64,000 nt of DNA from Escherichia phage HMD-6, in sequence record PQ505080.1. One strand, 5' to 3'. The translations under genes were made by a program, and so were the position numbers. Positions 30,394-31,136 of this stretch are shown here, piece by piece (the first letter of the stretch is position 1; every line of letters begins with the position of its first letter). Below the pieces are notes generated by a model that searched no databases, was not told where the DNA came from, and saw only the letters and a program-made list of their open reading frames with translations.

Positions 30394-30821
30394 TGTCTAA
30401 GATTTACGGACCGTGTTCTGAAAAGCAGAAGATGATCCTTGAGAACGATGCAGATATTTTGGTGATTGGAGGTGCAGCCGGTTCTGGCAAGTCGTTCCTC
30501 TTGCAGCTAATGCCACTTAAAATTATTGATGACCCACACAGCTCTGTGGTTATGTTCCGAAGAACAACTCCACAGTTGGAAGGTGAGGGTGGGCTATGGC
30601 CTAAAGCAGTAGCTATTTACAGTGATCTGCCTGAAAACATTAAACCAAAGTTCAGAGAGAAGGATCATAAGTTTATTTTTCCACGGTTTGATCCGAGCAC
30701 TGGCAAGTGGGACAGGAGCAAAAAAGGGGCCGTTGTAAAATACTGCCACATGGAGTATGTCCAAGATAAGCTTAACCATCAAGGTCTTGAGTACACCATG
30801 GTTTGCTTCGATGAGGGTTAA
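30393..30821 (+). CDS. terminase large subunit, exon 1 (ATPase N-terminal part)
   Basis: Walker A VIGGAAGSGKSF and Walker B MVCFDE; ORF stops 2 codons after Walker B at intron 5' end. Confidence 0.8.
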   Translation: MSKIYGPCSEKQKMILENDADILVIGGAAGSGKSFLLQLMPLKIIDDPHSSVVMFRRTTPQLEGEGGLWPKAVAIYSDLPENIKPKFREKDHKFIFPRFDPSTGKWDRSKKGAVVKYCHMEYVQDKLNHQGLEYTMVCFDEG

Positions 30822-31136
30822 TTTGTAGCTCTCGTAAAACCTCCCTAATTGCGGGGAAATCTTTATTATCGGCACCACCAACCTGTTATGGTAACATGAT
30901 AGGGGCTTCGAAGAGAGATCGAAGGTATGGTAACAGTGTGCTGATTTAGATAATCCGCAGCGAAGCATCCGAGAGGATGAACGTTCAACGACTAGTCGAA
31001 AGACGTAGAATCAAGCGATTCGAAACGGGAGGGTAAGCGGTCGTTATCGCTTATAAGATATAGTCTGGTCTGCATGGAGACATGCAGCTGCCTGAAATGG
31101 CGGGGCAAGACTAGCGACCTTGCCCGAACATAAACG
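30819..31136 (+). ncRNA. ORF-less group I intron in terminase large subunit gene (boundaries approximate)
   Basis: Conserved core elements: P-like AATTGCGGGGAAA (30847-30859), Q-like AATCCGCAGC (30952-30961), R-like GTTCAACGACTAG (30983-30995), S-like AAGATATAGTC (31055-31065), P9-like hairpin CTGCATG-GAGA-CATGCAG (31070-31087); ends in G before in-frame exon 2. Confidence 0.8.

Follow-up and report, generated by a model that had tools for sequence, protein, structure and literature searches.

[quoted passage not shown]

Introduction

How does a phage make a full-length terminase large subunit (TerL) when the reading frame of its gene is closed by a stop codon within the ATPase domain and then resumes, in frame, several hundred nucleotides later? 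The question is raised by Escherichia phage HMD-6, of which a window of 64,000 nucleotides (record PQ505080.1), the whole stretch of DNA analyzed here, derives from a Vequintavirus, an rV5/FV3-like coliphage with 95–98% identity to many records; no record identical to the stretch was found among the matched phage records. [quoted passage not shown] Here we describe the boundaries, predicted structure and distribution of the interrupting segment, and relate it to introns already described in this and other phage genes.

Results

Interruption of the terL reading frame

In the list of open reading frames the terL frame that runs from 30393 (+) ends ...MVCFDEG and is followed by an in-frame TAA at 30819-30821; the frame is open again past another TAA at 31131-31133 and continues through to 32258 (+). 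The intervening gap, 30819-31136 (+), measures 318 nt (106 x 3), in agreement with the in-frame resumption about 320 bp downstream that was originally reported. Exon 1 (30393..30818, +) encodes 142 aa, includes the Walker A (GGAAGSGKS) and Walker B (MVCFDE) motifs and ends ...GAG GGU; it is defined by the list of open reading frames, by a Pfam Terminase_6N match at profile positions 2-104, and by BLAST alignments with relatives, which break at CDS position 426/427. The intron itself (30819..31136, +; 318 nt) has the in-frame UAA as its first codon and the omega-G as its last base. Exon 2 (31137..32258, +) encodes 373 aa plus a stop, begins with the codons ACA CAA UUC (TQF...), and contains the remaining part of the ATPase domain together with the RNaseH-like nuclease domain, as reflected in Pfam matches to Terminase_6N (111-211) and Terminase_6C.

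Joining 30818 to 31137, with an exact CDS join of 30393..30818,31137..32258, yields a TerL protein of 515 aa that reads ...MVCFDEG|TQFEWEQIDYL..., and the predicted ligated-exon junction is ...GAUGAGGGU|ACACAAUUC. The spliced protein gives a single continuous Pfam match to Terminase_6N of 72.6 bits plus a match to Terminase_6C, and the unfused halves score 26.1 and 31.7 bits with Terminase_6N. Because exon 1 leaves the 215-position Terminase_6N profile at position 104 and exon 2 enters it at position 111, the intron sits within the ATPase domain, one codon past the Walker B glutamate, and the earlier placement of the intron between the ATPase and nuclease domains is incorrect. We place the 5' splice site after 30818 because of the U30818·G30828 wobble in P1, and at the other end the frame is restored by G31136 as the sole usable G, which is also the terminal base of the intron.

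No plus-strand open reading frame of at least 40 aa is listed inside 30819-31136, and a 124-aa minus-strand open reading frame at 30594-30968 has no Pfam match. Two other explanations for the interruption were considered and rejected: an intein, since the insert begins with a TAA codon and has a second in-frame TAA at 31131, and an assembly artifact, since the same arrangement is present in more than 20 independent genomes.

Group I identity and predicted structure

The extent originally given for the ORF-less intron proved exact. A cmscan search of Rfam, run at the gathering threshold (50 bits for Intron_gpI), returned a match to RF00028 Intron_gpI at 30809-31087 (+) with a score of 81.4 bits and an E value of 3.8e-19, spanning model positions 1-253 of 253. 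All of the core features named in the earlier reading are also present: the P element AAUUGCGGG from 30847, the Q element UCCGCAG from 30954 (+), the R element ACGACUA from 30988, the S element AUAUAGUC from 31058 (+), the P7 strands GACUA and UAGUC, a P9 hairpin and a terminal G. The predicted minimum free energy of the intron is -111.2 kcal/mol (z = -5.85), with 0/100 shuffled sequences folding as well, and the unconstrained fold already gives the nested (non-pseudoknot) canonical helices. We regard it as very probable that 30819-31136 is a td-like (IA2-type) ORF-less group I intron in a Vequintavirus terL gene, and one that would be removed by splicing.

The elements occur in the order P1, P3, P4, P5 with P5a/b/c, P6/P6a, P7, P7.1, P7.2, P3', P8, P7', P9, P9.1 and P9.2, and it is on this order and on approximately 82% identity to the td 3' region that the IA2 architecture is assigned, the Rfam model applied being the general RF00028 only. 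On these features the subgroup appears to resemble that of T4 td and is best described as IA2-like, with the missing P2 treated as variation.

P1 (30813..30833, +) pairs GAGGGUUA (GAGGGU|UA, 30813-30820), which straddles the 5' splice site, with the guide UAGCUCUC (30826-30833); 8/8 of its pairs are standard, the U30818·G30828 wobble lies at the splice site, and the helix is invariant in four variants. The P2 hairpin is absent, as the spacer between P1 and P3 is just 6 nt (GUAAAA); a hairpin is present at the P2 position in the relatives kmuB, SPG24 and RudolfGeigy intron 2. The 5' strand of P3 (CCUCCC, 30840..30845, +) pairs with GGGAGG at 31027-31032. The P4-P5 domain (30850..30959, +), which is recovered in both minimum-free-energy and centroid folds and contains compensatory changes, is composed of P4 (30850-30855 with 30954-30959, +), P5 (30859-30862 with 30948-30951, +) and a branched P5 extension in which P5a (30868-30875 with 30938-30945, +) carries the P5b hairpin with its GUAA loop (30882-30903, +) and the P5c hairpin (30906-30924, +). 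A 10-nt sequence, UAUGGUAACA, occurs twice in this extension, at 30887-30896 and 30927-30936; one of these contributes the 5' strand and loop of P5b, and the predicted fold leaves the other without a pairing partner, so that the latter may permit an alternative pairing. P6 (GCG with CGU) and P6a (CAUCC with GGAUG) follow at 30960..30984 (+) and are closed by a GAGA tetraloop, which is GAAA in phage ECP26 and still of the GNRA type.

P7 is the guanosine-binding helix of the group I core. Its 5' strand GACUA (30990..30994, +) pairs with UAGUC at 31061-31065 in a pseudoknot with P3, and GACUA is invariant in 11 homologous introns, T4 td included. Two subgroup IA peripheral hairpins come next, P7.1 (GUC-GAAA-GAC, 30995-31004, +) and P7.2 (GAAUC-AAGC-GAUUC, 31008-31021, +), and P8 (UAAGCGGU-CGUU-AUCGCUUA, 31034..31053, +) is a compact hairpin of 20 nt. 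The 3' end is occupied by P9 with a GAGA loop (31070-31087, +), P9.1 (31090-31101, +), P9.2 (31103-31125, +), and the omega-G at 31136 (+), which is the last intron base and lies within the tail GAACAUAAACG. Ten of the 11 aligned homologous introns likewise have tails ending in G, and the sequence of the eleventh, from phiTE, is 2 nt short of the end. P10 is weak, with 3-4 possible pairs in an ambiguous register.

Covariation within the predicted fold

Across four close variants, the 93 proposed pairs are 99.2% standard. Three pairs have changes on both sides: two in P5a (C-G to U-A and G-C to A-U), and one in P5b for which three pair types are represented (U·G / U-A / C-G). All one-sided changes in these variants preserve pairing and the loop changes preserve GNRA, and when the register is slid by 1-3 columns pairing is 34-41% with zero compensatory changes. 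A shuffle control is weak with four sequences, and 22 of 500 shuffles reach the observed covariation value. The core helices P3, P4, P6 and P7 are invariant among the four.

More distant comparisons were made with the introns of T4 td, a phiKZ-like Pseudomonas phage, Bacillus phage SPG24, Jarilo (a Pectobacterium phage DNA polymerase intron), phiTE (an RNR intron) and the second Vequintavirus terL intron. P7.1, P7.2, P8, P9, P9.1 and P9.2 stay hairpins with differing stems across these homologous introns, T4 td included, and the P7.1/P7.2 homologues fold as hairpins in T4 td, kmuB, SPG24, Jarilo and the intron 2 copies. For the distant introns each segment between conserved-motif anchors was folded separately, and the formal pair count is that of the four close variants; a column-wise count is invalid on the distant 3' halves because MAFFT set P8 out of register. 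Taken together, the compensatory changes point to selection acting on the fold of the intron.

Intron-less relatives and the two-protein alternative

Comparison with intron-less terL genes bears out the placement of the junction. Phages 203 and nom have an uninterrupted terL of 1548 nt, whose protein product is 99.6–99.8% identical to the spliced HMD-6 TerL and reads FDEG|TQFEW at the junction, and in BLAST alignments their nucleotide sequence is continuous exactly at the junction as placed; the empty-site sequence is TTCGATGAGGGCACGCAGTTCGAA. The TerL of 4MG, which is more distant (69% identity), also reads FDEGTQFEW without interruption. When seven alleles were compared, five of them intron-bearing and two intron-less, just two fixed differences between the classes were found over the 1548 nt, both synonymous and both beside the site. 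At position -1 there is a U in 5/5 intron-bearing alleles and a C in 2/2 intron-less alleles, with the U making the U·G of P1, and at position +6 there is an A in the intron-bearing and a G in the intron-less alleles.

These observations bear on whether terL is instead a split gene, in which the insert is dead or non-splicing and the product of exon 1 assembles with a second protein restarted at ATG 31170 or TTG 31167. Several GenBank records (including those of naswa and ECP26) do annotate two separate terminase CDSs, and the list of open reading frames contains a start codon at 31167. However, the two-CDS annotations look like automatic calls, the nearest GGGAG is approximately 15 nt 5' of ATG 31170 and is poorly spaced for a Shine-Dalgarno sequence, and the ten codons upstream of the restart (31137-31166, TQFEWEQIDY) are conserved as coding in both the intron-less relatives and 4MG. 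Moreover, the ribozyme core is intact, the compensatory changes indicate that the fold is under selection, and the U at -1 is restricted to intron-bearing alleles. We give the split-gene explanation very little credence, and treat the two open reading frames as exons of a single gene.

Of approximately 119 related records, we estimate that about 66 have an empty site, 22 have the ORF-less intron and 30 have an intron with an endonuclease VII-family ORF, these counts taking in duplicate and derivative records. The terL intron site is empty in FV3, which is among the closest genomes overall, and, relative to how closely the genomes are related, the intron is therefore distributed patchily. We note that some 18–24 unannotated records labeled 'Campylobacter phage' (MG0656xx) are about 96% identical in this region to E. 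coli Vequintaviruses. Every one of the three states of the terL site is represented among them, and the hosts that they name look doubtful.

An endonuclease-bearing sister allele

The endonuclease-bearing allele, found in ECP26, DrSchubert, MaxBurger, JES2013 and others (30 records), occupies the same site and has a ribozyme that is approximately 97% identical to that of HMD-6 outside P8. It is 883 nt long in the ECP26-type form compared with 318 nt in HMD-6, and the difference resides in P8, where a 7-bp stem (GAAUGUG/CACAUUC) surrounds an ORF of 197 aa belonging to the Endonuclease_7 family (Pfam, 76.1 bits for the ECP26 intron ORF), whereas the HMD-6 P8 has no ORF. In ECP26 (L002 1020-1902) the ORF begins with an AUG in the P8 5' strand and terminates at a UAG within the conserved J8/7-P7' element AAGAUAUAGUC. 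Because the ends of the ORF overlap P8 and AAGAUAUAGUC, translation and ribozyme folding should compete in ECP26.

No close homologue of the intron endonucleases of ECP26 or rV5 was found in the HMD-6 window by tblastn with both ORFs; the matches returned were the HNH gene of the nrdD intron described below and a weak endonuclease VII motif of 25 aa at 14745-14819. A free-standing ORF of 201 aa at 14397-15002 (-) contains the endonuclease VII-like motif LDHDHLTGRCRGVL and is only weakly similar to the intron endonuclease (25 aa, E 0.011); its product could be either a resolvase or a homing enzyme.

Is the HMD-6 intron an immobile relic, a decayed descendant of an endonuclease-bearing intron that is now only vertically inherited? 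The existence of 30 related records in which P8 holds the ORF and the rest of the intron is 97% identical fits such a history, as does the lack of a close homologue of the endonuclease ORF from the HMD-6 stretch. Against it, the P8 stems of the ORF-less (UAAGCG..) and ORF-bearing (GAAUGUG..) forms are unrelated, and derivation of the former from the latter by simple deletion was rejected on this ground; furthermore, the presence of the intron does not track genome relatedness, as the empty FV3 site illustrates, a pattern that fits transfer or repeated gain and loss. The relic explanation is possible, but we lean away from it. A 9-nt identity, TATCGCTTA, is shared between the ORF-less P8 and the middle of the ECP26 ORF, and could be due to chance.

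Because its sister alleles bear an ORF and more than half of its relatives are empty, the HMD-6 intron is better viewed as one of the forms of a mobile intron that is polymorphic among these phages. Recombination or gene conversion is its most likely route of inheritance, and the endonuclease of a related phage infecting the same cell may assist. A further proposal, that the ORF-less intron is kept because it benefits the phage, seems unlikely to us. It could take three forms: by occupying the target that encodes Walker B, the intron could protect terL from the endonuclease VII-family enzyme of the sister introns; it could be copied into empty alleles through an enzyme supplied in trans (collaborative homing); and its GTP-dependent splicing could link TerL synthesis, and hence packaging, to the nucleotide state of the cell. 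If this proposal were true, the P2-less, branched-P5 fold would be an uncharacterized structural variant of the td-like introns.

Proposed splicing of the terL message

From the established group I pathway we infer that catalysis would proceed as follows. The pre-mRNA would take up the core fold of the P3-P9 and P4-P6 domains, and the guide UAGCUCUC would pair with the exon end GAGGGU in P1, with the U·G wobble marking the 5' splice site. P7 would bind an exogenous guanosine, which would attack after U30818, following which omega-G31136 would enter the site and the exons would be ligated (GGU|ACA) to encode the 515-aa TerL. DNA packaging should depend on this reaction, because the unspliced RNA yields only the 142-aa fragment with Walker A and B. 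Our searches of the literature found no experimental splicing test of Vequintavirus terL intron 1.

Efficient splicing in vitro is not guaranteed because P2 is absent and P10 is weak, and the same two features (with a P1-P3 gap of 6 nt) could be taken to suggest a non-autonomous intron that splices only in vivo with the aid of host or phage factors such as RNA chaperones or ribosome transit. There is precedent in some Bastillevirinae introns that are spliced in vivo and not in vitro (PMC11878797). In HMD-6, however, both the core and the IA-type peripheral elements are present in full and form a stable fold (-111 kcal/mol), and the branched P5 extension may provide the stabilizing contacts that P2 gives elsewhere. 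We think it improbable that the intron is non-autonomous in this sense, and favor a self-splicing group I intron.

Other intron sites and features of the HMD-6 window

A second terL intron site, unoccupied in HMD-6, lies at 31454..31455, as defined by BLAST block boundaries at CDS position 744/745. In rV5 it holds an intron of 979 nt with an HNH ORF (L001 1656-2634), and in RudolfGeigy an ORF-less intron of 268 nt (L004 1656-1923) that scores 95.6 bits with Rfam. The likely splice sites here are displaced by a single base from the BLAST block edges: with ...ACCAU|U...AAGG|AUUC, position -1 is a U, the intron ends in G, and the exons meet within an Ile codon, AU|A. At the gathering threshold Rfam returns no match in T4 td, ECP26 intron 1, rV5 intron 2, Jarilo or phiTE, and because large ORF insertions break the model match, the silence of Rfam on ORF-bearing introns is not evidence of their absence.

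HMD-6 has a second group I intron, of 762 nt, in the anaerobic ribonucleotide reductase gene nrdD (3670-2909, -), between exon 1 (4831-3671, -) and exon 2 (2908-1946, -). The gene is split at ...TSMG|CRSFL..., with the 5' splice site following GGU and a P1 of AUGGGU/GCUCAU, and the Pfam NRDD profile is contiguous over the junction (1-263 | 264-562). The td-like 5' and 3' halves of the intron parse cleanly, the 3' half ending AACAUAAUG, and between them is an HNH-type ORF (3610-3059, -) with weak Pfam matches to HNH_3 and to the I-HmuI NUMOD; it is because of this ORF that the intron was missed by Rfam at the gathering threshold. The nrdD intron is common to only about 28 phage records and most relatives are without it, with nrdD uninterrupted in FV3, LL12 and an rV5 derivative.

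A cluster of seven tRNA genes (28477-29289) lies immediately upstream of the spanin gene and terL: Arg-TCT, Tyr, Ser-TGA, Thr, Met, Pro and a seventh, which is an odd 99-nt call at 28946-29044 to which ARAGORN assigns a 4-base anticodon and Rfam a score of just 35.5 bits. A megablast search with 20000-44999 matched several hundred T4-like, Shigella and Yersinia phage records at 80–95% identity, which implies that a short segment, perhaps the tRNA genes, is common to HMD-6 and the Tevenvirinae.

Discussion

The HMD-6 terL intron provides another example of a mobile intron that interrupts an essential late gene at a codon of a catalytic motif. It is nothing new in kind, and the value of the finding is mainly practical. 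Many Vequintavirus records still present terL as two terminase CDSs, which distorts terL-based phylogeny and protein clustering, and in the ECP26 record terL exon 1 is mislabeled as a "putative recombinase endonuclease". In addition, the three natural allelic states (empty, ORF-less and endonuclease-bearing) present in near-identical coliphages constitute a convenient system in which to study homing and intron gain and loss.

The intron is already known, in that the same intron has been annotated and published for rV5 and its relatives, and for this reason the HMD-6 copy is an ordinary one. The GenBank record of rV5 (DQ832317, CDS 'ORF64ABC') assembles terL from three joined segments and places an HNH gene in the second of the two introns. 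Kropinski et al. (2013, Virol J 10:76; PMC3606486) include a section entitled "Introns in terminase", whose statement on rV5 is based on BLASTX, and they acknowledge D. Shub for the intron definition. A genome announcement reports that the terL and DNA polymerase genes of LL12 are intron-disrupted (PMC6658697), and the BASEL phage records annotate terL joins. Terminases are named in reviews as typical intron targets, and splicing of terL introns has been demonstrated by RT-PCR in CB7 (PMC7344957) and in the Bastillevirinae (SIOphi; PMC11878797).

The closest known system is rV5 intron 1, which is in the same gene at the same site after ...FDEG, has the same ORF-less architecture, and itself scores 84.9 bits with Rfam. 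A small number of substitutions, two compensatory pairs in P5a among them, distinguish the HMD-6 copy from it, and the HMD-6 copy is 96.6% identical to the intron of typing phage 5, an rV5-group record. rV5 differs in having the second, HNH-bearing terL intron 318 nt downstream, where the HMD-6 site is empty.

Beyond the Vequintaviruses, the 3' half of the T4 td intron has the same order of P7, P7.1, P7.2, P3', P8, P7', P9, P9.1, P9.2 and omega-G, the last 78 nt of the HMD-6 intron (intron positions 238-315) are approximately 82% identical to the td 3' end, and both introns start with UAAUU. The td intron, however, is in the thymidylate synthase gene, has a P2 hairpin, and contains a large ORF upstream of P7, which we take to be I-TevI, located in P6; the HMD-6 intron has no P2, a branched P5a/b/c extension and no ORF.

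Group I introns in terL are also found in other phage lineages, namely LL-H of Lactobacillus (Mikkonen & Alatossava 1995), CB7/phiTE of Pectobacterium, SIOphi and 2L372X, and their sites, where compared, differ from that of HMD-6. The CB7 terL intron carries an HNH gene, whereas that of HMD-6 is ORF-less. [quoted passage not shown]
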